A DNA stretch of 64,000 nt from an uncultured Candidatus Saccharibacteria bacterium (GCA_964644035.1 CAZXUH010000001.1:131712-195711); one strand, 5' to 3'. Counted from the stretch's first letter, positions 31,753 through 46,095 are shown. A program made the numbers and translations. Notes: generated from the sequence alone by a model not told the origin.

Positions 31753-31779
31753 GTCTTCTTTATCAGTTAATCAACTAAC

Positions 31780-33135
31780 ATGAAGAAGATACTACTCAGT
31801 ATTGGCTCTATCATCTTCGCGGGCGCTATCCTCGTCGGGGCGACGGGTGCGTACCTTTCTGACAGCGAGACCTCGACTGGCAATACCTTTGCCACAGGCG
31901 TTATTGATTTGAAAATCGATAATGAAAGCTATGTCACCAATGATTTTGGCAAACTGGTCTTCAGTTCGTCGACTTCATGGGCACTTTCATCGCTTGCCGG
32001 AAAACTCTTTTTCAATTTCTCTGACATTAAGCCAGGGGATATTGGAGAAGACACCATCTCGCTTCACGTAAACAACAACAATGCGTGGGCGTGCATGGCG
32101 GTCAATCTGACCGGCACACCGGAAAACGGTCAAAACGATCCAGAAGCAATCGTTGATCCTACGTCAGGCGCCAATGACGGTGAACTTCAAAATGAACTCA
32201 ACTTTGCTTTCTGGGGTGATGACGGCGACAATGTCTATGAACAAGGAGAGACTATTTTCAAGCAAGGGCTTGTAAAAAATATCTTCAACGGACAAAACTG
32301 GGCGCTTGCCGATTCCGCTACCAATATTTGGGGCACACCGGGACCAATTCTCGGCAATACCGTCAAATATGTTGGCAAAGCATGGTGCTTCGGACCACTT
32401 GGTACTGCTGCCAAGACTCAAGACAACTTGGGTAAGACAGGCAACAACGGACCATTGGTACGCGGAACGGGCTTTACCTGCAGTGGTGACACGATTGGCA
32501 ACATCGTGCAAAGCGATGGTCTCAAAGCCAATGTCAGCTTCACTGCAGTTCAGTCTCGAAACAATGGCAGTTTTGTCTGCGGTCAGACAACAACACCTCC
32601 ACCCCAAGCAACTTCAAGCTCCACATTTCTCTCGGATAATTTCGAAAGTTATACACCAGGGGATGAATGGGATGAAGAATGGCCAGATGGATCGTCGAAT
32701 TATGATTGGGATGAAGTTGGCGGGGTAAAGTTTTTGGCTGGTGTAGGCAATCCCGGAAAGGCAGCCGATCTCAATGCCGACAACAACAATGCCAGCGTTC
32801 CCAATAATAAAGAGACTCTGACGGCCACATATCTCGACGTTACGGGATACAACACGATTGTATTCAAGTATGATCGTAAGACCGATGACACCAATTCGCC
32901 TCCACAGGCAGTTGGTCCTCAGACTTTGAAGGTAGAGTATAGCGTCAATGACGGTGCAAGCTGGACGACGCTCGAGACAGTCAATGGAGAATCCGCATGG
33001 ACGACCAAGACTTTCTCACTCTCACCTTCGGCAAACAACAAACCAAGAGTAAAGGTCAGATTTACATTGACTGGTCAAGACGCAAGTAATCACGCCTACA
33101 TCGACAATGTAACGGTGACAGGCATCACACCTTAG
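31780..33135 (+). CDS. TasA/camelysin-like secreted protein, paralog 2, with distinct C-terminal beta-sandwich-like domain
   Basis: 451 aa. Same SipW-cognate N-terminus (GATGAYLSDSETSTGNTFATGVIDLKIDN). Conserved core GEDTISLHVNNNNAWACMAVNLTG...FAFWGDDGDNVYE...YVGKAWCFG. The unrelated C-terminal region ends ...AYIDNVTVTGI. Confidence 0.7.
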   Translation: MKKILLSIGSIIFAGAILVGATGAYLSDSETSTGNTFATGVIDLKIDNESYVTNDFGKLVFSSSTSWALSSLAGKLFFNFSDIKPGDIGEDTISLHVNNNNAWACMAVNLTGTPENGQNDPEAIVDPTSGANDGELQNELNFAFWGDDGDNVYEQGETIFKQGLVKNIFNGQNWALADSATNIWGTPGPILGNTVKYVGKAWCFGPLGTAAKTQDNLGKTGNNGPLVRGTGFTCSGDTIGNIVQSDGLKANVSFTAVQSRNNGSFVCGQTTTPPPQATSSSTFLSDNFESYTPGDEWDEEWPDGSSNYDWDEVGGVKFLAGVGNPGKAADLNADNNNASVPNNKETLTATYLDVTGYNTIVFKYDRKTDDTNSPPQAVGPQTLKVEYSVNDGASWTTLETVNGESAWTTKTFSLSPSANNKPRVKVRFTLTGQDASNHAYIDNVTVTGITP

Positions 33136-33151
33136 TTATTCATTATTCACC

Positions 33152-34522
33152 ATGAAAAAAATACTGTTAAGCATGAGTGTAATAGTCTTCGTAGCCGGCG
33201 CCTTCGCAGCTGGTGCGACGGGTTCGTTCTTTTCTGACACCGAAACTTCAAGCGGCAATACGTTTACCGCTGGAGCAATCGATCTCAAAATCGACAACTC
33301 AAGCTATTACAACGGTTCACTATCGAGCAGCACCAGCTGGTCGCTGACGGACCTCACGATTCAGAAGTTCTTTGATTTCTCGGACGTTAAGCCAAGTGAC
33401 TACGGCGAAGATACGATTTCGCTGCATGTCGACAACAATGACGCATATTTGTGCGCCAATGTGACGCTTACGAGTAATGATGATAATGGTTTGACCGAGC
33501 CGGAATCGGAAGTCGATCAGACCGCAGGAGTAGGACAGGGCGAGCTTGCCGATGAAGTCAATTTCATCTGGTGGGCGGACGACGGCGACAATGTTCTTGA
33601 AGACAATGAAAATGTCATTTCTCAAGGACCGATCGGTGCACTTGGAGTCAATGGTTCGACAACTGTTCCTCTCGCTGATTCAGAAAACAATATCTGGACA
33701 GGTCAAGGTGGACCAGTGCCTGGAGCGCAGACGCTCTATATCGGCAAGGCGTGGTGCTTTGGCGGTATTACTGCAAACCCTCTCGATCAGGACAATGCGA
33801 CAAGCACCAATCCTAGTCTTGATAACAATGACAACTCAATTGCCGGTGAACCTGCAGACGGAGGATATCTTTGTGATGGATCAGATCTTGATAACAGCAC
33901 TCAAAGCGACAGTCTCACAGCCGACGTAACATTTACCGCTGTGCAGGCACGTCACAATGATGAATTCCTCTGCACACCTCCTCCACCTCCACCAGTGCGA
34001 CTGGCCTGCACTCCTGGACAGGAATGGGCAGATACGGTTGTCACGAGTAATCATGGCAATCGCAAAGATGGATCACTTATCTTAGTTGACCGACGCAATC
34101 CAACATTTGCTCTTGGTCCAGCACAGACAACAGGTACACCTTCGGATGCTGTTGTCACACCAGCGAGTTTCTTTAGCCTTGGATTCAATGTCGGTACAAC
34201 AACAACTCGAAGTCTGACGGTTGCATTCAATGACAACATTATCGTCAATGCAACTGGCAGCGACGTGCGTATCTATGAAGTGACAGGAGGAGTCTATCCC
34301 GATGAACACATCATGGTTGAAGCAAGTCAAAACGGCATTGGATGGACAACCATTGCCGCAGACGCAATTCGCGATGCTGATATTGATCTAGGGGCACTGC
34401 CTTGGGCTAGGTACATTAGAATCACCGACATCAATACAACGGGACCATTCCCAAGTGATGCCGATGGATATGATGTTGATGCTGTCAGGGCACTTAATTG
34501 TGAACAAACACCAGTGGTGTAA
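33152..34522 (+). CDS. TasA/camelysin-like secreted protein, paralog 3, with poly-Pro linker and third distinct C-terminal domain
   Basis: 456 aa. N-terminus GATGSFFSDTETSSGNTFTAGAIDLKIDN. Core nearly collinear with paralog 1 (GEDTISLHVDNNDAYLCANVTLTSNDDNGLTEPESE...NFIWWADDGDNVLE). PPPPPPV linker before a C-terminal domain. Confidence 0.7.
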   Translation: MKKILLSMSVIVFVAGAFAAGATGSFFSDTETSSGNTFTAGAIDLKIDNSSYYNGSLSSSTSWSLTDLTIQKFFDFSDVKPSDYGEDTISLHVDNNDAYLCANVTLTSNDDNGLTEPESEVDQTAGVGQGELADEVNFIWWADDGDNVLEDNENVISQGPIGALGVNGSTTVPLADSENNIWTGQGGPVPGAQTLYIGKAWCFGGITANPLDQDNATSTNPSLDNNDNSIAGEPADGGYLCDGSDLDNSTQSDSLTADVTFTAVQARHNDEFLCTPPPPPPVRLACTPGQEWADTVVTSNHGNRKDGSLILVDRRNPTFALGPAQTTGTPSDAVVTPASFFSLGFNVGTTTTRSLTVAFNDNIIVNATGSDVRIYEVTGGVYPDEHIMVEASQNGIGWTTIAADAIRDADIDLGALPWARYIRITDINTTGPFPSDADGYDVDAVRALNCEQTPVV

Positions 34523-34528
34523 TAACAC

Positions 34529-36097
34529 ATGAAAGTAATCTTCAACACTTTTTACTATCTCTTCATTGCAGGCATAGTAGCCATTGGACTTTTGCTCCTG
34601 GCGACGCTTGTTCCAGTGCCAGGGAATTTCAAGGTGAAAGTGGTGAAATCCGGTTCGATGTCGCCAGCTATACCAACAGGAAGTATCGTGGTCATTAAAC
34701 CCGAAAATTCTTATAGTGTTGGCGATATTATTACCTTCGGTGCAGATACTAAGACTCAGGTTCCTACGACGCACAGAATTATTGCTGTGCAGGGTAGTGG
34801 ATCGGGCAAAGTATTTACCACTCAAGGTGATGCCAACGATGCGCCAGATACGGCAGCAACGCGGCTATCGGATATCAGAGGCAAGGTAGTGTTTTCAGCG
34901 CCGTATGTCGGCTATGTGCTCGACTTCGGAAGGAAACCATTAGGTTTTGCACTGCTTGTAGGTGTTCCAGCACTCTCTATTATCTTCGATGAAATCATGA
35001 AGATCGTCAGAGAGATTAGAAGAATTCGCCGAAAGAAAAACCATCCAGAAGACAATATCGATGAATCTGCAAGTGGAGTGAGTACTACAGTACACAATAC
35101 TGTACAACCGCCAACAGTTACATCTACCTATTATCCGAAACATGACATAGCCAATAAAAGGATGATGTCAGCATCGATGGATGGAATAGTCAGACCTCAA
35201 CAGATAAGGAGGAATATAGAAAGTAATGCAGCCAGCCGGGCCTATCAGGTCCAGCCTGGGCGTGTAGCATATTTTTCCGCTCGAACACTTCTCGTGGCCT
35301 TCGTAGCTGCTGGGTGTATGTTTGGTCTGTCTTCTATAGGCGGTACGCTGTCATATTTCAATGACAGCGAAACATCGACAGCTAATCTTCTAAGAGCGGG
35401 AATACTTGATGTCGAAATTTCACCCATTCTTACGGACAATAGTGTTGCTCGTTTGAGTGTACCTGATGAGACAGCAAGCACGACCGAAGAAGTCAAAGAC
35501 AAACCGACAAGCAGCCAGCTCTTCAGAATTTCTCTTACTGATAGTGATAAGGAAAATGTACCTTTTCTTTACACGGTCTTTGGGGAATTCAATAAAGACA
35601 ATCCCGCTGGTTGCGAAGCAGTAGAGCTCAGCGTCTTCATGAATGAATATCATTATGATGGACTGCTGTCATCATTTGCTTTGCCGGCAACATCTGCGGC
35701 TGGTACAGGGCAGTTTATTGTCTCGGCACCAACCGGAGATTCTATTCTTGCATCGGGGGCAATATGTGCAGGTAATCTTATTTTCAGGGCTTATCCTGAA
35801 AATACAGAAGATCCGCTCAATTCGCCTTTCTCAGATGAGGAAAGGTATCCTTTCACGGTTCAAAATTATATTGAACCAGTGTCGATACCAGCAGCTCAAG
35901 AAATAGTTGCAGAATCTGTAGTTATTGAGGTTCCAAAAGAAACAGCAGAAGAAATAATAACTAATCCAGAAACAGAGAGTGAAACTCCTGTAACGGAAGT
36001 AATTGTTGAACCTGTTTCAGAGCCTGTGGTAGATATACCCCTTGTACCTGAGACATCAGCTACTGAAACACCACATACTTCTACCGAAACTATATAA
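34529..36097 (+). CDS. SipW-type (archaeal-type, S26B) signal peptidase I, fused in frame to a C-terminal protein that itself begins with a SipW-cognate signal peptide
   Basis: Residues ~1-175: N-terminal TM, VVKSGSMSPAIPTGSIVVIKP...THRIIAV...TQGDANDAPD...GKVVFSAPYVGYV, C-terminal TM (compare SipW VLSGSMEP). Residues ~215-522: basic n-region, h-region TLLVAFVAAGCMFGLSSIGG, then TLSYFNDSETSTANLLRAGILDVEISP (TasA-type cleavage region) and an acidic Pro/Glu/Thr-rich tail. There is no in-frame stop between the two parts. Confidence 0.65.
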   Translation: MKVIFNTFYYLFIAGIVAIGLLLLATLVPVPGNFKVKVVKSGSMSPAIPTGSIVVIKPENSYSVGDIITFGADTKTQVPTTHRIIAVQGSGSGKVFTTQGDANDAPDTAATRLSDIRGKVVFSAPYVGYVLDFGRKPLGFALLVGVPALSIIFDEIMKIVREIRRIRRKKNHPEDNIDESASGVSTTVHNTVQPPTVTSTYYPKHDIANKRMMSASMDGIVRPQQIRRNIESNAASRAYQVQPGRVAYFSARTLLVAFVAAGCMFGLSSIGGTLSYFNDSETSTANLLRAGILDVEISPILTDNSVARLSVPDETASTTEEVKDKPTSSQLFRISLTDSDKENVPFLYTVFGEFNKDNPAGCEAVELSVFMNEYHYDGLLSSFALPATSAAGTGQFIVSAPTGDSILASGAICAGNLIFRAYPENTEDPLNSPFSDEERYPFTVQNYIEPVSIPAAQEIVAESVVIEVPKETAEEIITNPETESETPVTEVIVEPVSEPVVDIPLVPETSATETPHTSTETI

Positions 36098-36120
36098 ATT
36101 TCGATTGAAGTGATAGTAGA

Positions 36121-36160
36121 ACAAACCACCCGAGGAGGGTGGTTTGTTTGTTGTTTTATT
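36121..36160. terminator. Bidirectional terminator between the convergent tasA/sipW operon and the cohesin operon
   Basis: aaaccaccc-gagga-gggtggttt 9-bp perfect stem followed by gtttgttgttttatt. Confidence 0.7.
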
Positions 36161-36198: not shown

Positions 36199-37644
36199 TT
36201 ACTCCATTTCCTCGATCTTTTTAATGAGATATTTTTCAGTAAGCTTAATGTTGTCTGAGAATTTCTTAAGTATCTTCGCTTCTTCTTTTGTGAGTTTTTT
36301 ATCACCCTTTGCGTTTTCAAGCGTCTCAACATGTTCATTGAGATCATCTTCGAGCAATTTCATTGCGCGATGAATTTCATTCTTAGTTTCGTGCAAGACT
36401 TTGTCAGTGCTTTGTTTAGGCTTTCTCGTCTTACGCATGATGAAGTAGGTGAGAGCCCAGACAAAGAGTAGTAGGCCAAGTATGGATACTATGAGAAGCA
36501 AGGTGCTATTTGCAAGGAGTGAGGTTGTGCCGCTAGTCTTTGCGGTATTTGGTTCAGGGAAGTTTATTGATAGCGATTCTTCTGCTGTATTGCCCGCAGC
36601 ATCGAATGCTTTGACAGTTACACCACGAATGCCTGCCGGTACATTGGCAAAGGTGTATCGTGTAGGGCCATTGGCGTTTGTACTCTTTATTTCAGCAGGT
36701 GCCTGACCATCTACAGTAATCAAATATTTTGCAATACCCGACGCACTATCTTTGGCAGAAATATCTATAACAGCCTGACCTGAATCCAGGATCGAATGGT
36801 TTACAGTAAGTGACTCTGGAGCAGTAGTATCGATTTTGACCTTTCTATGCGTAATTTTGCCCCAACCAGAACTATCTCTATATCGGATGTGGAAATATGA
36901 AAGCCCTTCTTCTATATCATTGACCTCTTTTGAATTTATAGCTGGTGTATAGGAAACAGTTGGTGTTGAGTCGGGATCTCTATCAAATAAAAGCTGAAGA
37001 GAAGTTACCCCTTTTGGAACTGACCAGAGAAAGGTTGTGTCGCTAAGAGAATACCATTTCTCAGGATCAGGCATGTCCTTTGAGGACACAATAGGAGCAG
37101 CTGGACCTACTTCTGTAGGTTTAGGAGTCTCTTTTACCTCTGGTGTCGTAGGTTTTGTGGCTGGAGGTGCGGTCACGACGACTGATACTCCGGTTTTACT
37201 TTGGGTAGCGTCGGTTCCTAGGCCGTCATTGGCACGGACGGTGGCTGATTGGAATGCAATTGTGGCTTTGCCATCTCTCTTGGCGCGCATTTGTATCGAC
37301 AAAACCTTGCCGGCTGAACCTGTATATCCAGGGTTAGGTACGCCACCATTAAACGTCACCATGCCGCCAGAAAATGCAGGCTGCTCTACCCACAAACTAA
37401 GCACCGATCCAGTGGTATTGACTGAAAGAATCTCCAGAATATCAGAGGGGACTGAAATCACCCCTTCGACGCTATTGATAGGAACGCCGTTGGTATTGAC
37501 GTAGATAGTTGCTGTGACTGTTTCGCCAGTTTGAACCTCAGCTCTTCCGGTCGTGATATACACGCTTGCAGCATCTATAACCTGAGCGGAAAGAAAGAAT
37601 CCTGCAATGATGACGGTTACGATAACATTCTTTAAAATCTTCAT
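36199..37644 (-). CDS. Cohesin-like domain protein with C-terminal TM anchor and cytoplasmic coiled-coil tail
   Basis: 481 aa. Signal peptide. GETVTATIYVNTNGVPINSVEGVISVPSDILEILSVNTTGSVLSLWVEQPAFSGGMVTFNGGVPNP...GKVLSIQMRAKRDG follows the cohesin pattern (GDTVxVPV...NxDFxxxYDPxVLE...G.I.F.F...DG.FA.I.FKV). Then Thr/Pro-rich linkers, Ig-like repeats, the TM helix LLLIVSILGLLLFVWALTYFI and a charged tail. Confidence 0.5.
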   Translation of the reverse strand: MKILKNVIVTVIIAGFFLSAQVIDAASVYITTGRAEVQTGETVTATIYVNTNGVPINSVEGVISVPSDILEILSVNTTGSVLSLWVEQPAFSGGMVTFNGGVPNPGYTGSAGKVLSIQMRAKRDGKATIAFQSATVRANDGLGTDATQSKTGVSVVVTAPPATKPTTPEVKETPKPTEVGPAAPIVSSKDMPDPEKWYSLSDTTFLWSVPKGVTSLQLLFDRDPDSTPTVSYTPAINSKEVNDIEEGLSYFHIRYRDSSGWGKITHRKVKIDTTAPESLTVNHSILDSGQAVIDISAKDSASGIAKYLITVDGQAPAEIKSTNANGPTRYTFANVPAGIRGVTVKAFDAAGNTAEESLSINFPEPNTAKTSGTTSLLANSTLLLIVSILGLLLFVWALTYFIMRKTRKPKQSTDKVLHETKNEIHRAMKLLEDDLNEHVETLENAKGDKKLTKEEAKILKKFSDNIKLTEKYLIKKIEEME

Positions 37645-38531
37645 TTCTTCTTTAATGAATATTTATAGATAACAATGCCGATAATGATAAGTACTGCTAT
37701 GTTGAGAATGAGCCACAACATTTGATTATTCGATGTTCCTGAAGCAGCTTTTGAAGTTTTTACAGTAACAGATTTGATATTTCCAGCATTGTCGACAGCA
37801 CGAACGGTTAGTTCTCCAGAGAGTGATTGATCTTGGAGAATATATGTATTGCCCGAGCGTACGAGAGGTAAGTCATTTTCTATGACTTCATAACGATTGA
37901 TACCCGATTCGAGATCGATAGCATTGAAGCTGGCGAAATATTTGCCATCGTAGGTGTCTTTGTCATAGCCGATCACTACGTCGAAATTTTGCGGTGCGAT
38001 CTTGTCGGCAAGTATAATTTCTGTAAGTTCATTGGATGTTGCTCCAGTCGTTTGTGTGACATCGATAGTAGAAGATTTGCCCGTCACCGACACTTTGGTG
38101 CCTTTGCCATCATGCAAAAATACAAATGCATTATCAAATGAAGCGTTTAGAGAACCAGGTGTGGTAGGTCTTATAGCAATAGAAAATACTTTTAGTCGAC
38201 TGCCAGAAATACCAGACGTAGCACCGCCGGTAAAGGTAATTTTCTTTCCTGAGAAAGAAGGTTTGTTTGGCCAAAGACTAAATAGGGAACTATTGGTTGT
38301 GATTGCTGTTATTTCATATTCACCCTCAATGGTCAGTGATCCTTCGACAACGTTTATTTCTTGTTTTTCAGTATCAAGTATGACATCGACGATAACTGTA
38401 TCTCCCGCATGCACGATTTGTGACGGTTCATTGAGATAGATAGACATTGCACGAGTTGTCGCAGGTAAGCACACAAAAGCTGTACAAATAGCTAGAGAAA
38501 ATAAAATCTGTTGTATAAAGGTGTGTTTCAT
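37641..38531 (-). CDS. Secreted cohesin-like domain protein (paralog of the N-terminal domain of the downstream gene) with C-terminal TM
   Basis: 296 aa. AGDTVIVDVILDTEKQEINVVEGSLTIEGEYEITAITTNSSLFSLWPNKPSFSGKKITFTGGATSG...LKVFSIAIRP shares the cohesin-like pattern. C-terminal hydrophobic helix. ATGA overlap with the next gene. Confidence 0.5.
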   Translation of the reverse strand: MKHTFIQQILFSLAICTAFVCLPATTRAMSIYLNEPSQIVHAGDTVIVDVILDTEKQEINVVEGSLTIEGEYEITAITTNSSLFSLWPNKPSFSGKKITFTGGATSGISGSRLKVFSIAIRPTTPGSLNASFDNAFVFLHDGKGTKVSVTGKSSTIDVTQTTGATSNELTEIILADKIAPQNFDVVIGYDKDTYDGKYFASFNAIDLESGINRYEVIENDLPLVRSGNTYILQDQSLSGELTVRAVDNAGNIKSVTVKTSKAASGTSNNQMLWLILNIAVLIIIGIVIYKYSLKKK

Positions 38532-38533
38532 TT

Positions 38534-40852
38534 TTATAATGCTTTACCTGCCGTACCCCATTGCGAGAGCAGTATTGAAAAGTCTATTGAATCGACACGT
38601 CGGTCTTTGTTGATATCAACGCATGTATTCTTAAATGGTGGAGCGGTCTTCCAGAAAGCGAGCAATATAGAGAAGTCAACTGAGTTTACATTGTTGTCGC
38701 CATTGAGGTCTGCTCCTTTGCAGGCTCCTTGCGGAGTTGGTACGGGAGTAGGTGCTGGTGCACCTCCACCGCCTCCACCACCGCCGGGTGAGGGTGTTGG
38801 AGTAGGATCAGGAGTGCTATCACTGGTAATGGTAAATGAACGTGATGAACCTGATGATTCGGTGCCGAAGTAGACGACAACCTTGAAGTAATACGAGCCA
38901 GCTGTCGAAACTGTAGCAGTAAGATTGGTATTCCAGTCTTCACCAGGGTTGATGAATTTTGCGCCGGTGCCATGGTAGACATCATTGCCACCACCGCAAG
39001 CATTGTCGGACTGACTGACGACGCACCATTCGTATTGGTATTCATAACCAGCCAAACCTTCATTGGTAATTGTTAGATTTGCACTGACGTTTGGTGTGCT
39101 CGTAGCGGTGACGCTATTGATAATCACTTGGGCAGGCGAGCCGGCGACAAGCCAATAGTCATTGGTTGTAATGATTTTGCCGCTTTCGACTTCTGTTTCT
39201 ACGACTGATTCCCATACACCCTGTGACGCTCCTGAAGAGACAGAGTATGTGTATTCATAGAGTCCAGCTCCAATATCGGTCATCGGTACAGAAGAGACTA
39301 CGACGTTTCTATCAGCATCGTAGAGTGTGATTTCTGGAGCGGCAAAAACATCTTGGGCAATACTCGAGCTATTGAGTGTTGATACTTTTGCTCGGTACGT
39401 ACTGCCATTTTGAACAGATGAATAGTCGGACATAGTTACGAGCCATGTTGCAGTTTGATTGGCCAAAGATGCGCGTGAAGAAGTAGTGGTATCGATATTA
39501 TCTGCGAGGCGCTTACCAATGGAGTTGACCGTATTGAGACTTGAAGTAAGGGTATTCCAGACATCGGCGGCAGTAATATCGTTGCCATATTGGGTTAGAG
39601 TTCGTGCGCTGTTACCCCACACAGCTGAAACAATACTTGATGTTGAATAGTCGGTCAGAGTTCTGCTGGTTACGCTCCATACATCTGCTGCAGTGAGCGT
39701 ACTCGTACTTCTACTTGATATCTGTGCATCGATATTGTCAGCTAGGCGTTTGCCAATACTGCCTGATGTGGTGAGTTGGGCTGCAGCACGATTCCATACT
39801 TCATACGCTGTTGTTGAAGCCAAAGAAGCTGCGTTTGTCGATGATCCATAATCAGTAAGTGATCGACTCGCATGAGTCCAAATATCTGTTGCAGAAATAT
39901 CGTTGAGACCATTTATAAGATTCCTATTGGCAAGTATTTCAGCAAAAATACCCGATGTGGCAATCTGAAGACTTGAAGTCAAATCAGTATTGGTGACCAA
40001 TGATCCGCCTGAACTAAGTGTAGAGTCGGTAAGTCGTCGTGTTGCGTTACTCCATATTGCTGAAGCAATGCTTGTTGTGGAATAGTTGGTGAGTGTTCTA
40101 GTTGTTGCATTCCAGACTTCATCAGCGGTCAAACTACTTGTTCCACGACTTGAAATTTGTGCGTCGATATTGTCTGCAAGAAGTTTTCCGAATGTTCCTG
40201 GTGAGGCAAAGCCGGCAACAGCTCTATTCCATACCTCATATGCTGTTGTCGAAGCAACTGTCGATGATCCATAATCGGTAAGTGTTCTACCTGTAAAGTT
40301 CCAAATATCACTTACTACAGATCCGAGAGATGAAAGTGTCCTTGTGCCACTATTCCAGACTGCTGAAGCAATGCTGCTTGTTGAAACAGCGGCTGAAGCA
40401 ACGGTAAATGTTCTATCTGTTTTAATAAGATCTCCTGCAAGGGCTGTGCCGCAGGTCATAGATGTAGGCCAATTGCCAAGTGCAGCATCAGAAGCAAGGG
40501 AATATGAATAATAATGCCAGCCAGTTGCTTCGGCAGTCATGGTTGCATTGTTTACTTTTTGAGTGCTTGTCGAATCGTATATTGTTACCCAGCAAGGAGT
40601 AGTGGTAGCTGAATAATTGTCATCGTATACAAATTCGCCAATAGTAACCGTATCTCCAGGGGAATATCTCTGATACTGGGCAAATGCCGTATGTGAAAAA
40701 CTAATACCAAATGTAAATAAAAACAGTAAAAAGAATAGTTTTGATTTTAGAGAATAATGTTTTTTACAAAAAATAGAGTAATGCATGGAAGTAGCAGTCC
40801 AATTGCTCATAATGATAGCCCATATAGCATTAGTTATCAACACGATATGCAT
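38534..40852 (-). CDS. Large secreted repeat protein with C-terminal type-I dockerin domain
   Basis: 772 aa. Likely start at the internal MHYSIF (signal peptide KKHYSLKSKLFFLLFLFTFGISFSHTAFA|QY). At least ten ~19-aa repeats of consensus xxA(S/D)(D/E)VWNxx(T/S)RTLT(D/N)Y(G/S)S, within a duplicated ~110-aa super-repeat. PTPTPSPGGGGGGGGAPAPTPVPTP linker. C-terminal GADLNGDNNVNSVDFSILLAFW...DINKDRRVDSIDFSILLSQWG is a duplicated F-hand dockerin. Confidence 0.55.
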   Translation of the reverse strand: MHIVLITNAIWAIIMSNWTATSMHYSIFCKKHYSLKSKLFFLLFLFTFGISFSHTAFAQYQRYSPGDTVTIGEFVYDDNYSATTTPCWVTIYDSTSTQKVNNATMTAEATGWHYYSYSLASDAALGNWPTSMTCGTALAGDLIKTDRTFTVASAAVSTSSIASAVWNSGTRTLSSLGSVVSDIWNFTGRTLTDYGSSTVASTTAYEVWNRAVAGFASPGTFGKLLADNIDAQISSRGTSSLTADEVWNATTRTLTNYSTTSIASAIWSNATRRLTDSTLSSGGSLVTNTDLTSSLQIATSGIFAEILANRNLINGLNDISATDIWTHASRSLTDYGSSTNAASLASTTAYEVWNRAAAQLTTSGSIGKRLADNIDAQISSRSTSTLTAADVWSVTSRTLTDYSTSSIVSAVWGNSARTLTQYGNDITAADVWNTLTSSLNTVNSIGKRLADNIDTTTSSRASLANQTATWLVTMSDYSSVQNGSTYRAKVSTLNSSSIAQDVFAAPEITLYDADRNVVVSSVPMTDIGAGLYEYTYSVSSGASQGVWESVVETEVESGKIITTNDYWLVAGSPAQVIINSVTATSTPNVSANLTITNEGLAGYEYQYEWCVVSQSDNACGGGNDVYHGTGAKFINPGEDWNTNLTATVSTAGSYYFKVVVYFGTESSGSSRSFTITSDSTPDPTPTPSPGGGGGGGGAPAPTPVPTPQGACKGADLNGDNNVNSVDFSILLAFWKTAPPFKNTCVDINKDRRVDSIDFSILLSQWGTAGKAL

Positions 40853-40903: not shown

Positions 40904-41557
40904 ATGTCGCCTACGAAGAACACTACCAGAAAAAAAGATGATCCTTCGTTGCTCGATTTACGGGCACGCAAAACTGCTGCTCAGGCGGCTGTAGCGGCAC
41001 GAGCAATTAGAGAAAAAAAGATTCAGATAGAGGAAGAAAAAAATAAAGAAGAAGATGATAAGAAAAGAGCATTTCTCAAAGTTGCTGGCGTGGCCGGAGT
41101 AGGTTTGATCGCTTCTCAGATTATTCCGCAAAAAGCCGAAGCGTTGATCATGGGAGGCACACCTTCTGCGAGTGTTGTAGGTGTAAAGAATGCAAACAAT
41201 ACAAGAATCAATCCTGCAACCGAAGAAACGCTATCTTTGCTGCTTGCCGGCCAGGGAGTTACCAAACTAACCATCAATCTTTCTTCTTCGGGCAATGTCC
41301 ACACTCCAGCAGCAGGGAAAAAGATACGTGTCTATGCCTCTCGTTTTTCTCTAACTGCTGATGCGACTTCCGTTTCTTTTCGTTTTACAGCTGGCGGCAC
41401 TGATCATGAAAAATATGTTTCTCCAAAAGCTGGAGGTCTCTATGGAGCAAATAATCATCCAAATTATATAGAAGGGGGAGCCGATCAGGTGCTATACTGT
41501 GTCATATCAGGAACAACCACGGTTCAAATTAACATTGATTATTTGGAAGTTTCCTAA
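40904..41557 (+). CDS. Exported/membrane protein with Tat-like (KR variant) signal and beta-rich domain
   Basis: 217 aa. Long basic n-region, KRAFLK, a Gly/Ala-rich weakly hydrophobic h-region VAGVAGVGLIAS, and AEA|L. This is a twin-arginine-like signal with KR in place of RR. Confidence 0.45.
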   Translation: MSPTKNTTRKKDDPSLLDLRARKTAAQAAVAARAIREKKIQIEEEKNKEEDDKKRAFLKVAGVAGVGLIASQIIPQKAEALIMGGTPSASVVGVKNANNTRINPATEETLSLLLAGQGVTKLTINLSSSGNVHTPAAGKKIRVYASRFSLTADATSVSFRFTAGGTDHEKYVSPKAGGLYGANNHPNYIEGGADQVLYCVISGTTTVQINIDYLEVS

Positions 41558-41563
41558 ATCTAT

Positions 41564-44227
41564 ATGGCAAAACGAGCAATAGAACATCTTTTCACTGGAG
41601 CAACTACGCCGTATACGATATACGATTCATCGAAGACGGTATTGGGAGATTTGATTCAGCAGTATAGTGGACTCACTCCAACCGACAACTTCGCTGGTCC
41701 TGCCAAAATGGGTGTAGCACGACCAATGGAAACAGGAACCAACGTTCCAGGTGTATTTCCGCACGTTATTTCATGGGCTGACAAATCTGGTCTTTATACT
41801 ACAGGTACTGTTTCAGTATCGGGAGTCAACGTTACCGGTAGCGGCACAGGCTGGCTGGCCAATGGAGTGCCGATTGGGGCGAGAATTGGTTTTGGTTCTA
41901 CAAATAATGCTGATATCACTACATGGTATACCATTGCAGCTATCCCTTCGGCTACATCTCTGACCCTCGCAACTCCTGCGGGTACTATCGCCGGCGGTAC
42001 AGCTTTTGTTATTGATAAGACACTTCAAAAAGATTGGGTATTTCTAGCTGACAACCTTGGCGCAGCGGTCACGAGACGTATTACCTGTTTTATTTACGAT
42101 CGCACTACGTCACTCTTTACATGGAGAGGTTTTATTATCATGACCTATGCAGCTGGCGGAGGCACGCAGACTATAAGAGGTATGCGTATTATTTACGATA
42201 CCTATACAACAGGCACTATAGAAGTCGCTGGCGCTACGGTCACTGGCACTGGTACAGCATGGTCTGCAAGTCGTATGTCGATCGGTTCTCGAATAGGTTT
42301 TGGAAGTACTGATCCGACGCAAATTGCCACATGGTATTACATCAATGCTGTCAACTCCGATACGTCTATAACAATACAATCAACCGTCACGACGTCGGGT
42401 ACCGGAGGTACAGCTGCAAATATTACGATTGGCTCAGGTACTGCGTATGTTATCGAAGATTTAAAAGTTCTTACAGCTACTACAGCTGCCGTGCTTGCTG
42501 CAGCTGGACTTTCTATGACCAATGGTTTGGCATTCGATGATTTTACGGTTGGCGGTACGACCATTGCCGCAGCAACAACGGTAGACAAAACAAAGGTTGT
42601 ATATAGCTTGGTTGATCTTGACTCTGTATATAGTACCGGCACGGTGACCGTGCCAACATCTACTACCGTAACTGGTGTTGGTACTGCGTGGACGGCTGCG
42701 CTTTATTTGGGTTGTAGAATTGGTTTTGGTTCTACAAACCCTGCTTCGATTACTACGTGGTACACCATTACTGCTGTGGCATCGACTACCTCCATGACTA
42801 TTTCATCAAATGCGACGGTTGCCGGCGGTTCAAACTATGTAATCGTTGGAGGCAACGGCGTAGCCTGCGGATTGGCGATAGACGACAGAGTAAGTTGGAC
42901 CGAACAGTATGCCTATGTGTTGGAAATGCAGGCCGCTACAACACCGCAAGTATATAAATATAATTTTAGAACCGATCTTACAACGCTTGGAGGCATTGCT
43001 ACGGGGAAAACGTCTTCAGCGTGGGTGCTGACAACGGGTTTACAGACGATTGCTGGCTCTCTAACCCAAACCAACAATGGGAGAATAGGTGCGCTCGGAC
43101 ATGGACCAGGTGCAGGAGTAAAATGTTTGTATTTCGTTTCCGGTACGAGGGTTCACCGTGCTCCGCTTACTGATATTACCCAAGGTAGTACGACATGGAT
43201 ATCAGATTCTATGACCGAAGTACCGACAGGCGGATCTTCGACGTATACACTTTCGAGCTTGCTGACAAGCGTAGAAATTGCCGACCAGATCGATAGACTT
43301 ATTTTGACGTCCACTGGTGCTGGTGCGACAGTTGCGCATCATCGAGCGTACATTACCAAGTACGACGCTTCGGGTTCATATGAATTTGATCATATTTTCA
43401 TGACTGATACAGGTCAGCAAGACCAAAGTACCGCCGATTCAGATTCGACTCCTCACCCAAATACCCAAGGCGCTGCGTTGTCTGTATGGTCTCAGGGTGG
43501 TTTGGTGTATATGGCTCGTGCTGGTTTGGCTGCTACAACCAATATAATGTATGCAGTACCACTTGGTGCCGATTGGGAATATGCGACTGGTACTGTGAAG
43601 CAAAGGCTTATCACTCCTGCTATGGCTACGACCAATGCTATAAAACTTTCAAAAGTGTATGTTAACAATGCTGATTATCTTGGTGCAGGAGGTCTCACTA
43701 TGCCAACAGAACCGATACGACTGTATTATCGAACTTCCGATATAGATGATGATTCGGGGGTCTGGACATTGGTAGATCCGACAGGTGATCTTTCTGCTGC
43801 GACAGCAACCGATGAGATTCAGTTTGCAATTGAATTCCGCACTATTGGAGCAATTTGCATACCAAATAGAATTTACAATATCTGCTGCACATACGAGGAC
43901 GATACGACCGATAGTCACTACCAGCCTTCGGTTGCCCATTCATCTACAACAGGCAAGATGTTTGCGTGGAGATTTTCTACAGCCTTTGGAAGTACGGTAC
44001 CAACGCTTAGAATCAGGCTTTACAATGCTTCAACAGGTGGTTTGCTGCTTGATGATACGACCACAGCTTCAGCTGCAGGAACATTTGAAAAATCTACCAA
44101 TGATGGCGCTGCGTGGGGATCGTACAATACTACTGACAAGGGTGTAAGTGAAACAACATATATTCGATATACACCAACTGTTCTTGCTGACAACATCAAA
44201 GTAAGAGCATTGCTCACCCAAAACTAA
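41564..44227 (+). CDS. Large Thr/Gly-rich repeat protein (three ~75-aa repeats), no signal peptide
   Basis: 887 aa. Repeats at about aa 80-150, 210-290 and 345-420, with consensus TGT(V/I)xVxGxxVTGxGTxW...IGxRIGFGSTxxxxITTWYTIxAV...(AGG)xxYVI. Beta-rich with low charge. Confidence 0.5.
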   Translation: MAKRAIEHLFTGATTPYTIYDSSKTVLGDLIQQYSGLTPTDNFAGPAKMGVARPMETGTNVPGVFPHVISWADKSGLYTTGTVSVSGVNVTGSGTGWLANGVPIGARIGFGSTNNADITTWYTIAAIPSATSLTLATPAGTIAGGTAFVIDKTLQKDWVFLADNLGAAVTRRITCFIYDRTTSLFTWRGFIIMTYAAGGGTQTIRGMRIIYDTYTTGTIEVAGATVTGTGTAWSASRMSIGSRIGFGSTDPTQIATWYYINAVNSDTSITIQSTVTTSGTGGTAANITIGSGTAYVIEDLKVLTATTAAVLAAAGLSMTNGLAFDDFTVGGTTIAAATTVDKTKVVYSLVDLDSVYSTGTVTVPTSTTVTGVGTAWTAALYLGCRIGFGSTNPASITTWYTITAVASTTSMTISSNATVAGGSNYVIVGGNGVACGLAIDDRVSWTEQYAYVLEMQAATTPQVYKYNFRTDLTTLGGIATGKTSSAWVLTTGLQTIAGSLTQTNNGRIGALGHGPGAGVKCLYFVSGTRVHRAPLTDITQGSTTWISDSMTEVPTGGSSTYTLSSLLTSVEIADQIDRLILTSTGAGATVAHHRAYITKYDASGSYEFDHIFMTDTGQQDQSTADSDSTPHPNTQGAALSVWSQGGLVYMARAGLAATTNIMYAVPLGADWEYATGTVKQRLITPAMATTNAIKLSKVYVNNADYLGAGGLTMPTEPIRLYYRTSDIDDDSGVWTLVDPTGDLSAATATDEIQFAIEFRTIGAICIPNRIYNICCTYEDDTTDSHYQPSVAHSSTTGKMFAWRFSTAFGSTVPTLRIRLYNASTGGLLLDDTTTASAAGTFEKSTNDGAAWGSYNTTDKGVSETTYIRYTPTVLADNIKVRALLTQN

Positions 44228-44241
44228 TATTCAGAACTGCT

Positions 44242-44982
44242 ATGATTCATATTGAGAAAGATCAAAACGTTGCTGAGAATCCAAATCTCAAAATCATGAC
44301 TCCAACAGGTGACTATGATGACAATGCTAATATAGAATTTTATGATGTCGGTAATCCAGAAATCGCCGCAGGTTCATTCCAAGCTCAATATGTAAAATAT
44401 GGCGGTCTGGTCTACAAATTCAACGATCCCAAGGAATTGGGCAATGAAATTCTCAAAATCGATCCAACGTCGACTCATACTGCAGCGTCATATGTGCGTA
44501 TGACCAATGATCTCTTGGCTCAAATGAATAGTGGATCACTCGAACCATCTTCGCTCGATCAAGCTCTTGCAAGTGAACAAGTAAAGATGGAGGAAAAAAT
44601 GGAAGAGGAGATGATCAGTGATACCAATGCAATAATTACAGACACTACAGCAACAAGCACACCTGCTGCCGATCTTCCGACGAATACTCCAGTACAGAAT
44701 CCAACCAATAACCTTGTTTCGTCTACAACACCAGCAGCATCTTTGGAAACTTCGACTACGACTCCTGCATATACACTTGAAACATCAACATCTACTCCCG
44801 CTTCTAGTGGTATTTCAACATCCACACCTTCTTCAGCTTCGTCCACACCAACTTTAAATGATACTGCATCATCAACTATCGATGCTATTAGTAAGACAGT
44901 TAATAAAATTTCAAGTACTACTGATGCAATTTCAAATGCTGTAGAAACTATTATTAGTTCGACTACTTCTCCTACATCTTAA
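44242..44982 (+). CDS. Protein with Ser/Thr-rich low-complexity C-terminal half (mucin-like)
   Basis: 246 aa. Globular N-terminal ~120 aa, then TTATSTPAADLPTNTPVQNPTNNLVSSTTPAASLETSTTTPAYTLETSTSTPASSGISTSTPSS... Confidence 0.45.
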   Translation: MIHIEKDQNVAENPNLKIMTPTGDYDDNANIEFYDVGNPEIAAGSFQAQYVKYGGLVYKFNDPKELGNEILKIDPTSTHTAASYVRMTNDLLAQMNSGSLEPSSLDQALASEQVKMEEKMEEEMISDTNAIITDTTATSTPAADLPTNTPVQNPTNNLVSSTTPAASLETSTTTPAYTLETSTSTPASSGISTSTPSSASSTPTLNDTASSTIDAISKTVNKISSTTDAISNAVETIISSTTSPTS

Positions 44983-44987
44983 TCCAT

Positions 44988-45167
44988 ATGGCTCTTACCG
45001 ATGTCAATTTCCAAGAAGGGGAAGGTCAGGACTATATTGTGGAATTACCGACAGCTTCGTATTCAGGAACTCTCTCGGATATATCGACTGAAACAGACAG
45101 CACTCAGTATTCGGTATTAGAAGTACCAGCTACAGAGGGTGGCAATATCTTTATCATGTCAGAATAG
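44988..45167 (+). CDS. Small acidic ORF (59 aa), not in the supplied track
   Basis: MALTDVNFQEGEGQDYIVELPTASYSGTLSDISTETDSTQYSVLEVPATEGGNIFIMSE. Fills the gap between the S/T-rich gene and tatC. Low support. Confidence 0.2.
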   Translation: MALTDVNFQEGEGQDYIVELPTASYSGTLSDISTETDSTQYSVLEVPATEGGNIFIMSE

Positions 45168-45170
45168 GCT

Positions 45171-45893
45171 ATGGACGAGCTGCAGAAAAAAATAAAAGAA
45201 TACTCTCCATTTTTAGAAGACCTTTTTAGGAGAATATACTTTGTAACAGTCTTTTTTGTAGCAGCTTTTGTTGTCAGTTTTTTACTTTCAGGACCGCTTA
45301 TAAAGTATTTGATCAAATTTTTTGATTTCAAGGATGTAGTCTTGGCCGCAACCTCTCCATTTCAACTCATTGACCTCGCAATGAATTCAGGAATCTTTTT
45401 TGCAGTTGTGTTTACGGTGCCAGTGATCCTGTATCACACATACGCATTCATCGGAAGCGGTCTGAGGAGAGGGGAGAAAAAATTCTTTTTTCTTTTGCTT
45501 CCAATCGCACTTCTATTATTTCTTTTTGGTTTTGTATACAGCTTTTGTATCCTGTATTTTGCCATGCAAACACTCGCTAGTATCAATCTAGCGCTTGGTG
45601 TGCAAAATCTCTGGAATATAAGCATGTTTCTTTCAGAAATTATCTCTACGTCGGCTCTACTTGGGCTTATTTTTGAGTTTCCCATATTTGTAACAGTGCT
45701 CGTAAAAATGGGTGTAATCAGTGTCGATTTTCTTAAACAAAAGAGGCGATATGCAGTCTTTATTATGTTCATCGGCACTTCTTTACTTCCCCCAACCGAT
45801 GGTATATCATTATTGATGATGGTGTTGCCACTGGTGATTATTTATGAGATCACGATCATCTATAATCAAGTAAGTTTCAGGCAATTAGCTTAA
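45171..45893 (+). CDS. tatC: Twin-arginine translocase subunit TatC
   Basis: 240 aa with 6 TM helices. N-terminal amphipathic segment and TatC-like topology (LSGPLIKYLIKFF..., FFAVVFTVPVILYHTYAFIGSGLRRGEKK). Confidence 0.75.
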   Translation: MDELQKKIKEYSPFLEDLFRRIYFVTVFFVAAFVVSFLLSGPLIKYLIKFFDFKDVVLAATSPFQLIDLAMNSGIFFAVVFTVPVILYHTYAFIGSGLRRGEKKFFFLLLPIALLLFLFGFVYSFCILYFAMQTLASINLALGVQNLWNISMFLSEIISTSALLGLIFEFPIFVTVLVKMGVISVDFLKQKRRYAVFIMFIGTSLLPPTDGISLLMMVLPLVIIYEITIIYNQVSFRQLA

Positions 45894-45918
45894 ATTATAA
45901 CTAAATACTACTAATACA

Positions 45919-46095
45919 ATGTTTGGACTTGGAACAAGAGAGCTGATAATCATTGCTGTAATCTTCATTCTACTTTTTGGTGCTAAGAAAATTCCGGAAT
46001 TGGCAAAAAGTCTTGTCGATGCAGTACGTCACATGCGCGGAGCATTCAAAGATGGAGACGAATCTAAGCCAACAGACGATTCGCGACGAAGCTAG
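45919..46095 (+). CDS. tatA: Twin-arginine translocase subunit TatA/E
   Basis: 58 aa, not in the track (<60 aa). MFGLGTRELIIIAVIFILLFGAKKIPELAKSLVDAVRHMRGAFKDG... matches the TatA consensus (MFGxGxxELxIIxVIxLLxFGxKKLPELxxxLG). Confidence 0.75.
   Translation: MFGLGTRELIIIAVIFILLFGAKKIPELAKSLVDAVRHMRGAFKDGDESKPTDDSRRS

Follow-up and report, generated by a model that had tools for sequence, protein, structure and literature searches.

The window analysed here, a stretch of DNA of 64,000 nucleotides, belongs to an ultra-small Paceibacteria-type bacterium of the Patescibacteria (CPR). It carries on its minus strand a cassette of three co-directional genes (C, B and A; Table 1) for which no descriptive paper was found in the literature. 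A sequence-only reading of this DNA had described the three genes as overlapping; while all three open reading frames are present in this arrangement, the overlap is limited to the B/A junction, where four nucleotides (ATGA) are shared and the start of A overlaps with the stop codon of B. C and B are separated by a gap of 2 nt.

Table 1. Genes and features of the cassette and of the adjoining plus-strand block, with positions counted from the first nucleotide of the window
Feature	Position	Strand	Basis
Gene A, long membrane-anchored cohesin protein, 481 aa	36199..37644	-	ORF; junction; AF2
A residues 403-481, cytoplasmic helical (coiled-coil-like) tail, conserved R-x-LT-x-EE motif	36202..36438	-	model helices 378-445, 453-480; family consensus
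A residues 380-402, transmembrane helix	36439..36507	-	hydropathy 2.57; model helix 378-445 unbroken
A residues 272-362, Ig-like stalk domain (Big_13/DUF7743/FN3-like)	36559..36831	-	weak Pfam matches
A residues 186-271, conserved middle β domain; invariant S188, W197, P228, G247, Y250	36832..37089	-	
A residues 26-158, cohesin domain, nine-strand β-sandwich	37171..37569	-	
Gene B, short membrane-anchored cohesin protein, 296 aa	37641..38531	-	ORF; paralog of A; TM
B residues 271-290, C-terminal transmembrane helix	37662..37721	-	hydropathy 2.77; conserved in 70/72 homologs
B residues 29-160, cohesin-like domain	38052..38447	-	homology to A; family cohesin HMM 81.6 bits
Gene C, dockerin-bearing secreted passenger, 772 aa as listed	38534..40852	-	ORF; Pfam MG2 + Dockerin_1; 206 homologs
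C residues 711-768, type I dockerin: pair of F-hands (22 residues each, 31-residue spacing), flanking Cys711/Cys744	38549..38722	-	Pfam PF00404; PDB dockerins; AF2
C residues 676-710, flexible PT-rich/Gly8 linker, SDSTPDPTPTPSPGGGGGGGGAPAPTPVPTPQG	38723..38827	-	sequence; pLDDT <50
C residues 471-675, two tandem β-sandwich domains (MG/FN3-like), non-catalytic	38828..39442	-	AF2 pLDDT ~90; Foldseek
C residues 160-466, repeat region, (V/I)W-x4-6-R-x-LT motifs and longer ~140-aa repeats	39455..40375	-	regex, AF2
C residues 60-151, N-terminal MG2-like β-sandwich	40400..40675	-	Pfam MG2 at 63-131; AF2 pLDDT mostly 89-97
C residues 23-58, Sec-type signal peptide: K-rich n-region, h-region LFFLLFLFTFGISF, AFA cleavage site	40679..40786	-	hydropathy
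Promoter-like site TTGATA-17-TATCAT, 10/12, within annotated 5' end of C	40812..40840	-	consensus match only
p217, divergently transcribed conserved protein, putative Tat-type signal	40904..41557	+	14 homologs in related loci
p887, highly conserved, without signal peptide; three N-terminal repeats like phage tail-fibre N-terminal domains	41564..44227	+	PHROG 1591
p246, conserved, S/T-rich tail, without signal peptide	44242..44982	+	12 syntenic homologs
TatC	45171..45893	+	PF00902, 130.4 bits
TatA/E	45919..46095	+	PF02416, 48.8 bits

The annotated start of C was probably placed too far upstream, because a promoter-like site falls among its opening codons and Met23 precedes the signal peptide; the true protein would comprise about 750 amino acids and begin with Met23 at position 40786. 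The promoter-like site, which belongs to a type of match that is not more numerous in the region than in shuffled sequences, suggests Met15 or Met23 as the translation start. Sec-type N-termini are likewise found in the homologs of C, and just 5 of 47 display a loose RR pattern. The MG2 match scores 42 bits, above the gathering threshold, and most of the 206 homologs carry Dockerin_1/MG2. The repeat motifs (at residues 183, 246, 266, 391 and 411 by regular expression) lie in a region that AF2 renders as short helices of low confidence (pLDDT 31-74 per 10-residue block); the central third of the protein as a whole is poorly modelled, with pLDDT <50. For the two tandem β-sandwich domains, Foldseek reports matches to RbmA, to the MG domains of TEP1/alpha2-macroglobulin/complement, and to transglutaminase barrels. 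Pfam, PHROG and fold searches detected no enzyme domain in C, but MG/FN3/Ig-like modules only.

The duplicated F-hand dockerin that the sequence-only reading had placed behind the PT/poly-Gly linker of this 772-aa protein is borne out. Dockerin_1 (PF00404) matches residues 715-761 with 34.1 bits (gathering score 22.9; E 3.2e-8), and solved type I dockerins are matched by sequence both with the module alone and with its family profile (E 9e-5 to 7e-4). The Ca-binding loops are present in both C-terminal repeats, each with the ligands D1/N3/D5/D12 (D715/N717/D719/D726 and D746/N748/D750/D757). Among 46 homologs, conservation of these positions is complete or reaches at least 90%; both loops are retained by 92 of 120 homologs, all 92 of which share a fixed register of 31 residues. 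AF2 models the two-helix module confidently (helices 724-732 and 755-763; block pLDDT 89-95). The two halves of the dockerin share 60% identity and agree at positions 10-11, but positions 19 and 21 differ systematically (F/K versus Q/G).

Like C, the B and A proteins possess Sec-type signal peptides. In the AF2 model of A (mean pLDDT 90), the N-terminal domain adopts the cohesin jelly-roll, a flattened β-sandwich of nine strands and roughly 140 residues that can be superposed on solved cohesins. Foldseek concurs, and the best structural matches are the non-cellulosomal cohesins 2vo8 and 2w1n. The N-terminal domains of A and B are homologous (34% identity, E 5e-20). Neither protein of the window is matched by the Pfam Cohesin profile PF00963 (gathering score 24.1 bits), even at E<=1; both are therefore very divergent members, and their dockerin-binding face, formed in cohesins by strands 8-3-6-5, may not be conserved. 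The profile does match 18 of 60 full-length A homologs (best E 1.9e-12), and it aligns with the B ortholog of one related locus (L002) over positions 9-135 of 139 (E 6.9e-4, 20.3 bits). The assignment of both proteins as cohesins, made earlier with a sequence pattern that is no test of it, relies on the fold and the homologs.

A C-terminal transmembrane anchor with a cytoplasmic tail had been predicted for one of the two cohesin proteins, and hydropathy together with the helical tail of the model confirms it for A. This protein additionally contains the middle β domain, which separates the A family from the B family, and the stalk domain, for which 33 of 60 A homologs match Big_13 and the family profile matches FN3-like PDB modules (E 3e-5). 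The other protein had been regarded as small and secreted; however, B consists of a signal peptide, the cohesin-like domain, an Ig-like domain, and a conserved C-terminal membrane helix followed by KKK. A and B are both membrane-anchored.

Cohesins and dockerins are hallmark parts of cellulosomes, and the best sequence matches of the C dockerin are cellulosomal enzymes. Nevertheless, the description of the locus as a cellulosome-like display is misleading, and a minimal cellulosome that assembles polysaccharide-degrading enzymes on the cell surface is, in our view, exceedingly improbable. With one cohesin per anchor protein there is no scaffoldin; each cassette apparently has one dockerin protein; neither C nor the passengers sampled from related loci contain a glycoside hydrolase, a CBM or a catalytic domain (MG2, FN3, Big_6 and Ig-like modules only); and the anchor is a transmembrane helix, not an SLH module or a sortase substrate, on proteins whose best structural matches are non-cellulosomal. 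A cellulosome was thus rejected on its defining features, namely a multi-cohesin scaffoldin, CAZyme-borne dockerins and CBMs.

Single-cohesin surface anchors are found in cellulosomal clostridia, where OlpA/OlpC and SdbA of C. thermocellum (complexes 3ul4 and 4dh2) are attached to the wall by SLH modules and serve many dockerin-bearing enzymes or scaffoldins; in contrast, the cassette uses C-terminal transmembrane anchors on two paralogous proteins, apparently for one dedicated dockerin protein, and involves no enzymes. The Ruminococcus flavefaciens ScaE protein (type III cohesin, 2zf9), which binds the X-dockerins of ScaB and CttA, differs in its covalent sortase/LPXTG wall link, its type III X-Doc dockerin, and its place in a large cellulosome. 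The non-cellulosomal NanJ cohesin (2vo8) and NagJ cohesin-FN3 (2w1n) of Clostridium perfringens are modules of glycoside hydrolases; there, both partners reside on secreted toxins/enzymes that form soluble complexes, without a membrane anchor or a conserved three-gene cassette. Non-cellulosomal cohesin- and dockerin-like modules reportedly occur across the three domains of life, including an Archaeoglobus fulgidus cohesin (2xdh), and are scattered single occurrences without a known partner, whereas in the cassette the partner genes sit next to each other, co-diverge, and recur together in the majority of the related loci studied. Within the CPR, SEML1_0315 of the cultivated Saccharibacterium Southlakia epibionticum is a dockerin-domain protein essential for epibiotic growth, for which no cohesin partner is named (PMC10633639). 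By its description it resembles C as a surface protein with Ig/FN3-like domains and a dockerin annotation; unlike C, it has no adjacent cohesin-like genes, its neighbours being a hydrolase and a tRNA.

Among 84 related CPR loci (1.29 Mb), 71 have the order dockerin, B and then A, the dockerin forming the C-terminus of the ORF upstream of B; 71 of the 80 dockerins detected lie at exactly the cassette position, most exceptions being contig ends. The passenger that precedes the dockerin varies from MG2 plus repeats to small Big_6/FN3 proteins and giant FN3 proteins with lengths between 1,500 and more than 5,000 amino acids; of ten sampled upstream proteins, seven carry a Pfam dockerin above gathering, and their passengers are unrelated. 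Dockerin divergence correlates with that of cohesin B (r 0.45) and cohesin A (r 0.41) but not with that of the neighbouring middle domain of A (r 0.06), the partial correlations being 0.45 and 0.43 (permutation p 0.001), and a signal persists for each cohesin when the other is controlled for (partial r 0.30 and 0.22, p 0.001), although such Mantel correlations are anti-conservative on phylogenetically structured data and two dockerin/passenger subfamilies may partly drive them.

These observations bear on the reading that the partners do not interact at all, with the cohesin fold binding another ligand (a host surface or glycan), the dockerin serving as a Ca-stabilised terminal module, and the linkage reflecting co-expression only. 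We consider this very unlikely, given that the dockerin, not the passenger, is invariant beside the cohesin pair and that its divergence follows the cohesin domains specifically. The explanation that we favour, and hold to be probable, is a dedicated non-cellulosomal cohesin-dockerin cassette that anchors one variable, adhesin-like protein to the membrane. In this reading C, exported by Sec, consists of non-catalytic β-sandwich (MG2/FN3-like) modules and short repeats, followed by the flexible linker and the Ca-binding dockerin. A and B are type I membrane proteins, each with a signal peptide, an outermost cohesin, an Ig-like stalk and a C-terminal transmembrane helix, to which A adds the conserved β domain and the cytoplasmic helical tail; translationally coupled through the ATGA overlap, the two are probably neighbours in the membrane. 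Docking would take place between the C dockerin and the cohesin of B, of A or of both, and would hold C non-covalently at the cell surface, most plausibly as an adhesin or surface-matrix element, for instance in host or particle contact. Domain identities, topology signals, gene order, co-divergence, gene fusions and the lack of enzymes are observations, whereas the physical binding, for which synteny and co-divergence give indirect support, its stoichiometry, and the role of the displayed protein in host or particle attachment are inferred. The docking of the dockerin-bearing repeat protein by membrane cohesins, already proposed in the sequence-only reading, has become much stronger because of the conserved synteny, the co-divergence and the swappable passengers, whereas its corollaries (one anchored and one secreted cohesin, a cellulosome-like display, a TasA/SipW link) have not survived.

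How the two cohesins share one dockerin can be envisioned in different ways. We give some, though clearly minor, credence to a division of labour in which either B or A docks C, while the other binds a dockerin protein encoded elsewhere or has lost docking and serves another purpose (stalk, signalling or oligomerisation), for example via the cytoplasmic coiled coil of A. The limited identity of the two cohesin domains, the differing architectures (the extra conserved domain and cytoplasmic tail of A), tandem A duplicates in four loci (L010, L028, L055, L081) and the existence of loci with A and without B (L022, L036, L046, L081) all fit such a scheme. However, co-divergence with the adjacent dockerin is about equally strong for the two cohesins, the 64-kb window contains a single dockerin, and almost none occur away from the cassette in the related loci. 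Further dockerin proteins may be encoded in the genome outside the window.

Alternatively, in a refinement of the anchoring cassette that does not contradict it, a B/A heterodimer might engage both near-symmetric halves of the dockerin at once in a 1:1:1 complex, in place of a dual-mode single cohesin. The recurrence of one dockerin gene with two cohesin genes is in keeping with this, as are B-A gene fusions in at least 11 cluster representatives, with a helical hairpin predicted between the cohesin-bearing halves. The co-divergence of the dockerin with each cohesin, the other being controlled for, points in the same direction, and two distinct partners would suit the differences between the dockerin halves at positions 19 and 21. 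We nonetheless judge this clamp rather unlikely: the dockerin helices are so close together that two cohesins might collide, the partial correlations, themselves modest, are phylogeny-confounded, and some loci have A without B. Furthermore, all solved cohesin-dockerin complexes are, to our knowledge, 1:1.

The cassette adjoins a TasA/SipW fibre operon in the window, as had been noted, but this adjacency is not conserved elsewhere. The neighbouring SipW signal peptidase (TIGR02228, 103 bits; cut-off 51.85) is accompanied by SipW-cognate signal peptides (TIGR04088, cut-off 19) in three proteins (20.2, 22.6 and 27.3 bits), a fourth scoring 15.2 bits; across the 84 loci, the cassette lies next to a TasA-like gene in one and next to SipW in none. 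The TasA/SipW link is incidental; what is conserved beside the cassette in this lineage is the Tat translocase block on its opposite flank. Of the 47 loci with at least 3 kb of upstream sequence, 16 have TatC upstream of the cassette, while a downstream TatC is found in 0 of 62; about one third of the loci, that of the window included, show linkage of the cassette to TatC/TatA and to three conserved genes of unknown function. Set against the Tat motif S/T-R-R-x-F-L-K, the p217 signal reads KKRAFLK-VAGVAGVGLIASQIIPQKAEA, with an h-region and AEA; its (K/R)R-x-F-L-K motif is kept in 14 of 14 homologs, mostly as KR, with a true RR in L007 and L011. p887, syntenic in 14 loci, has 1547 homologs in Paceibacteria (72-80% identity) and matches PHROG 1591 in three stretches (E 2.6e-19); neither p887 nor p246 has a Pfam match.

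The most far-reaching proposal unites these elements. A B+A heterodimer would clamp both faces of the symmetric dockerin 1:1:1, with passengers swapped freely, throughout Parcubacteria-type CPR; in one large subclade it would be functionally coupled to a dedicated Tat translocon that would export p217 and p887 as a folded complex bearing tail-fibre-like repeats, and the whole would constitute the host-attachment organelle of these ultra-small cells. Taken in its entirety, this proposal is speculative and unlikely to hold. A 1:1:1 complex of B, A and dockerin, if true, would have a stoichiometry that, as far as we know, is not seen in cellulosomes.

The sequence-only reading had taken the presence of such a system in a small genome as a hint of host or particle attachment. 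The cassette is no rarity but widespread in Paceibacteria/Parcubacteria-type CPR genomes; members of its family are present in the genomes of at least 577 species and form about 5,800 clusters at 50% identity. Since the trio recurs in most related loci and the family extends to hundreds of species, it probably represents a general CPR display route for attaching a variable protein to the cell surface.

The dockerin-bearing passenger protein is encoded by gene C, followed on the minus strand by genes B and A for two cohesin-bearing membrane proteins; these three open reading frames are present as the sequence-only reading had described them. That reading also took all three genes to overlap, which holds for B and A, where the stop codon of the one and the start codon of the other share an ATGA, but not for C and B, which are separated by 2 nt. 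Because of this overlap and this narrow spacing, C-B-A is a tight operon with a single overlapping junction. A promoter-like site (TTGATA-17-TATCAT, 40840-40812, minus strand), recognized by its consensus match only, lies within the first 14 annotated codons of C, and translation of C likely begins at Met15 or Met23, probably at the latter (40786), since the signal peptide comes after Met23. With such a start, C and its plus-strand neighbour p217 would share about 117 nt of intergenic sequence between their divergent 5' ends. The SipW gene and gene A converge on a 101-nt gap that holds a strong hairpin of 13 bp with a run of T (36119-36149), likely the terminator of the plus-strand operon and perhaps active in both directions. 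Four tRNAs are encoded in the window, whose G+C content is about 42%; relatives of its proteins are found almost exclusively in metagenome-assembled genomes (MAGs) of Patescibacteria/CPR, the closest reference locus being that of a Candidatus Paceibacteria MAG (47% identity).

Features of the cassette (genes C, B and A) and its neighbours in the window
Feature	Position	Strand	Remarks
Gene C	38534-40852	-	772-aa ORF
Dockerin F-hands of C	38549-38722	-	flanked by C711 and C744; homologous sequences P0121-P0240
Gene B	37641-38531	-	296-aa ORF
Gene A	36199-37644	-	481-aa ORF
Conserved block	40904-46095	+	p217, p887, p246, 59-aa ORF, TatC, TatA; divergent from cassette
p887	41564-44227	+	three N-terminal repeats of ~130 aa, IG-x-RIGFGST...TWY
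SipW-type signal peptidase	34529-36097	+	residues 4-179; fused to a ~260-aa C-terminal region
Three paralogous secreted proteins	30082-34522	+	SipW-cognate/camelysin-like N-termini

The dockerin of C is real, and the duplicated F-hand proposed from the sequence alone is borne out: Dockerin_1 of Pfam is matched at 34.1 bits (gathering score 22.9), and both 22-residue F-hands carry the calcium ligands (D715, N717, D719, D726 and D746, N748, D750, D757). A single-sequence phmmer search with this dockerin matches solved cellulosomal dockerins, which are also reached by a profile of 46 homologs at E-values between 9e-5 and 7e-4, and the AF2 model shows two confident helices; a PT/Gly8 linker directly precedes the domain. 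Both loops are retained in 92 of 120 homologs, among which the register is invariant at 31 residues and the halves are on average 60% identical; the columns of the calcium ligands are invariant or at least 90% conserved. Positions 10-11 read S-V/I in each half; at positions 19 and 21, the halves show a systematic difference (F/K versus Q/G). The flanking cysteines C711 and C744 are both present in 60 and both absent in 25 of the 92 homologs, with one alone in the remaining seven, a paired pattern that suggests a disulfide clasp. In two of the related loci compared, L004 (8638-9090) and L001 (7192-9138), the dockerin-bearing gene looks split or frameshifted, its MG2 and dockerin parts forming separate ORFs; assembly error or pseudogenization may account for this, and in L004 the public gene call covers the dockerin on the opposite strand.

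The cohesins of A and B are likewise real but very divergent. The proposed Pfam Cohesin check gave no match for either protein, even at E<=1, nor did the NCBIfam scans, and single-sequence searches of the PDB returned noise only; the claim stands on fold and homologs instead. Since these direct searches failed, we assigned the domains from homologs, family profile and fold. PF00963 is matched individually by 18 of 60 aligned A homologs (best E 1.9e-12), one A homolog is named 'cohesin domain-containing protein' by NCBI, and one B ortholog matches PF00963 over nearly the entire profile. A and B are paralogous over their N-terminal ~155 residues (34% identity, E 5e-20). The family profile yields only weak cohesin matches among PDB sequences (5aoz, E 0.026), insufficient alone. 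In the AF2 model of A (mean pLDDT 90), residues 26-158 form a nine-strand sandwich, for which the top Foldseek match is the C. perfringens GH84C cohesin-FN3 construct; isolated cohesins superpose on the model at TM-scores of 0.64-0.70.

In A, the signal peptide and cohesin are followed by a PT linker, a conserved beta domain that distinguishes the A family from the B family (the middle domain, 186-271), an Ig-like domain of the Big_13/FN3 type (272-362), a TM helix (380-402) and a helical, cytoplasmic tail of ~80 residues. B consists of a signal peptide, a cohesin, an Ig-like domain and a TM helix (271-290) ending in KKK. The sequence-only reading held B to be secreted; this has to be revised, because a C-terminal TM helix and basic tail are kept in 70 of 72 B orthologs, and B is membrane-anchored. 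C carries a Sec-type signal peptide, an MG2-like sandwich (60-151), a poorly modelled repeat region with (V/I)W...R-x-LT motifs (160-466), two confident sandwiches (471-675), the linker and the dockerin. Its fold matches include the biofilm scaffold RbmA, MG domains of alpha2-macroglobulin and complement, and transglutaminase barrels, with nothing catalytic among them.

Relatives of A are widespread: a first search found 142 homologs, and 5,831 representatives at 50% identity were recovered at E<=1e-30, with members in at least 577 species genomes. We scanned the six-frame ORFs of 84 loci (80 A-family loci from species-representative genomes and four obtained through exact-protein look-ups) with HMMs of the family dockerin, cohesin and middle domains. 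In 71 of these loci, an upstream ORF with a dockerin at its extreme C-terminus is followed by B (cohesin only) and then by A (cohesin and middle domain); the other 13 loci are mostly explained by missing upstream sequence or by artefacts of ORF calling. Across the 1.29 Mb of loci, 71 of 80 dockerin matches fall at exactly this position. The upstream ORFs vary from about 330 to more than 3,300 aa, and among ten sampled upstream proteins, seven contain a Pfam dockerin above the gathering score, one falls just below it, and two have no Pfam match at E<=0.001. The passengers of the sampled proteins are unrelated, ranging from small Big_6/FN3 proteins through arrays of 11-16 FN3 repeats to a giant of 5,045 aa. 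The conserved unit thus consists of the dockerin and the two cohesins, with interchangeable cargo. As a probable surface module, the trio is conserved across a major CPR radiation and exchanges its passengers. Five loci (L010, L021, L028, L055, L081) have two tandem A-type genes with cohesin and middle domain, and four (L022, L036, L046, L081) have A with no B or dockerin detectable upstream; anchor copy number therefore varies. Ten cassette contigs bear the titles 'uncultured Gammaproteobacteria' or 'Deferribacteres' (L008, L018, L022, L046, L067, L073, L074, L076, L077, L083), which are probably automatic mislabels of CPR bins.

Across 72 trios, the dockerin correlates in pairwise distance with both cohesins (r 0.45 for B, r 0.41 for A), whereas it shows no correlation with the middle domain of A (r 0.06), whose own distances follow those of the A cohesin (r 0.47). 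With the middle domain controlled, the partial correlations are 0.45 and 0.43 (permutation p 0.001), the pattern expected of co-evolving partners, with the caveat that Mantel tests are lenient on related sequences. Furthermore, B and A occur in one polypeptide in 11 or more cluster representatives, the halves being separated by two neighbouring hydrophobic segments. In these apparent fusions (P0004, P0011, P0088, P0367, P0369, P0371-P0374, P0376, P0476), where fusion versus merged gene call is a reading at ORF level only, the order is cohesin, TM helix, second hydrophobic segment, cohesin, middle domain, TM helix. As evidence of the Rosetta-stone type, they suggest that B and A act in one membrane assembly. 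Either only one of the two cohesins docks C and the other has a different role, or both bind its dockerin. A simultaneous 1:1:1 clamp of the A and B cohesins on one dockerin would be the most novel arrangement; the B-A fusions, the independent partial correlations (0.30 and 0.22) and the conserved asymmetry of the dockerin halves speak weakly for it.

The closest structural likeness of the cassette cohesins is to the non-cellulosomal cohesins of C. perfringens. A cellulosome was rejected, as the proteins examined contain no enzymes, no CBMs and no multi-cohesin scaffoldin. The description 'cellulosome-like' is not retained either: each anchor has one cohesin, no passenger carries a CAZyme or CBM, and attachment is by TM helix. 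The single-cohesin anchoring proteins of cellulosomal bacteria work similarly to A and B, but are held by SLH domains or sortase, whereas A and B rely on a TM helix. One dockerin-domain protein, for which the reporting paper names no cohesin partner, is essential to the cultivated Saccharibacterium S. epibionticum (PMC10633639). The presence of the same cassette at that gene was ruled out by unrelated neighbours and the absence of cohesin genes there. Our literature search, over an open-access subset and thus not proof of novelty, turned up no account of a cohesin-dockerin cassette in CPR bacteria; some family members are already labelled by automated annotation.

Divergent from the cassette lies a Tat-linked gene block that is itself conserved. 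Of 47 loci that extend at least 3 kb upstream of the cassette, 16 have TatC there, and none of 62 has it downstream. The linked loci have the window-type dockerin (~100 bits with the family HMM); TatC is absent where the passengers are small and of the Big_6 type and the dockerin scores lower. In five loci (L011, L016, L020, L042, L050), the block genes precede the dockerin gene, all on one strand. Dockerin proteins as Tat substrates, considered as an explanation of this adjacency, were rejected, as their signal peptides are of the Sec type. p217 carries a candidate Tat-type signal of the KR type (KRAFLK), kept in 14 of 14 homologs; as p887 and p246 lack signal peptides, they could possibly be exported as its hitch-hikers. 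At 72-80% identity in many Paceibacteria, p887 far exceeds the cassette proteins in conservation, and none of its 1,547 relatives has a Pfam domain; searches of the PDB and, by tblastn, of 50,697 phage records returned no match. Its repeats match the N-termini of the PHROG 1591/1980 'tail fiber' families, which raised a prophage origin; this is not supported, given those negative searches and the synteny of the block in many cellular genomes.

On the other side of the cassette, the SipW/TasA-like operon noted by the sequence-only reading is genuine, but its adjacency is not conserved among the 84 related loci, and a functional link was rejected; genes like its three secreted paralogs occur nearby in one of the 84. 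The C-terminal modules of these paralogs differ (NosD-like beta-helix repeats, a Reelin subrepeat-B-like domain, and an unknown module). The C-terminal region of the SipW protein has a SipW-cognate signal peptide of its own at its start (residues 259-291, TIGR04088 27.3 bits), so that the peptidase may be fused to a likely substrate.

With these corrections, the core of the sequence-only reading is right. From what is directly observed (module identities, Sec signals, TM anchors, operon structure, conserved linkage, co-divergence and absence of enzymes), we consider it likely that C is exported and held at its dockerin by the cohesin of B and/or A, displaying a variable passenger. The binding would be calcium-dependent, stalks of Ig-like domains would present C, and the passenger would serve adhesion or surface-matrix functions.

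A large part of bacterial diversity belongs to the CPR/Patescibacteria, whose members in culture live attached to other cells. To our knowledge, almost nothing is known of surface construction in the classes that dominate in the environment (Parcubacteria/Paceibacteria). For one surface component, the cassette provides a concrete, testable answer: a conserved two-socket anchor and a dockerin plug with a rapidly changing passenger, the anchor A having relatives in at least 577 species genomes and about 5,800 protein clusters. It also makes a cohesin the candidate kind of partner to seek for the essential Saccharibacterium dockerin protein, offers a naturally occurring, TM-anchored minimal cohesin-dockerin pair that could serve surface-display engineering, and leads to a Tat-linked block that merits its own study. 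Should the binding prove true, the variable passenger would be an obvious candidate for host-specificity determinants. The importance of the finding lies less in this single locus than in the conservation of the trio across the CPR radiation.
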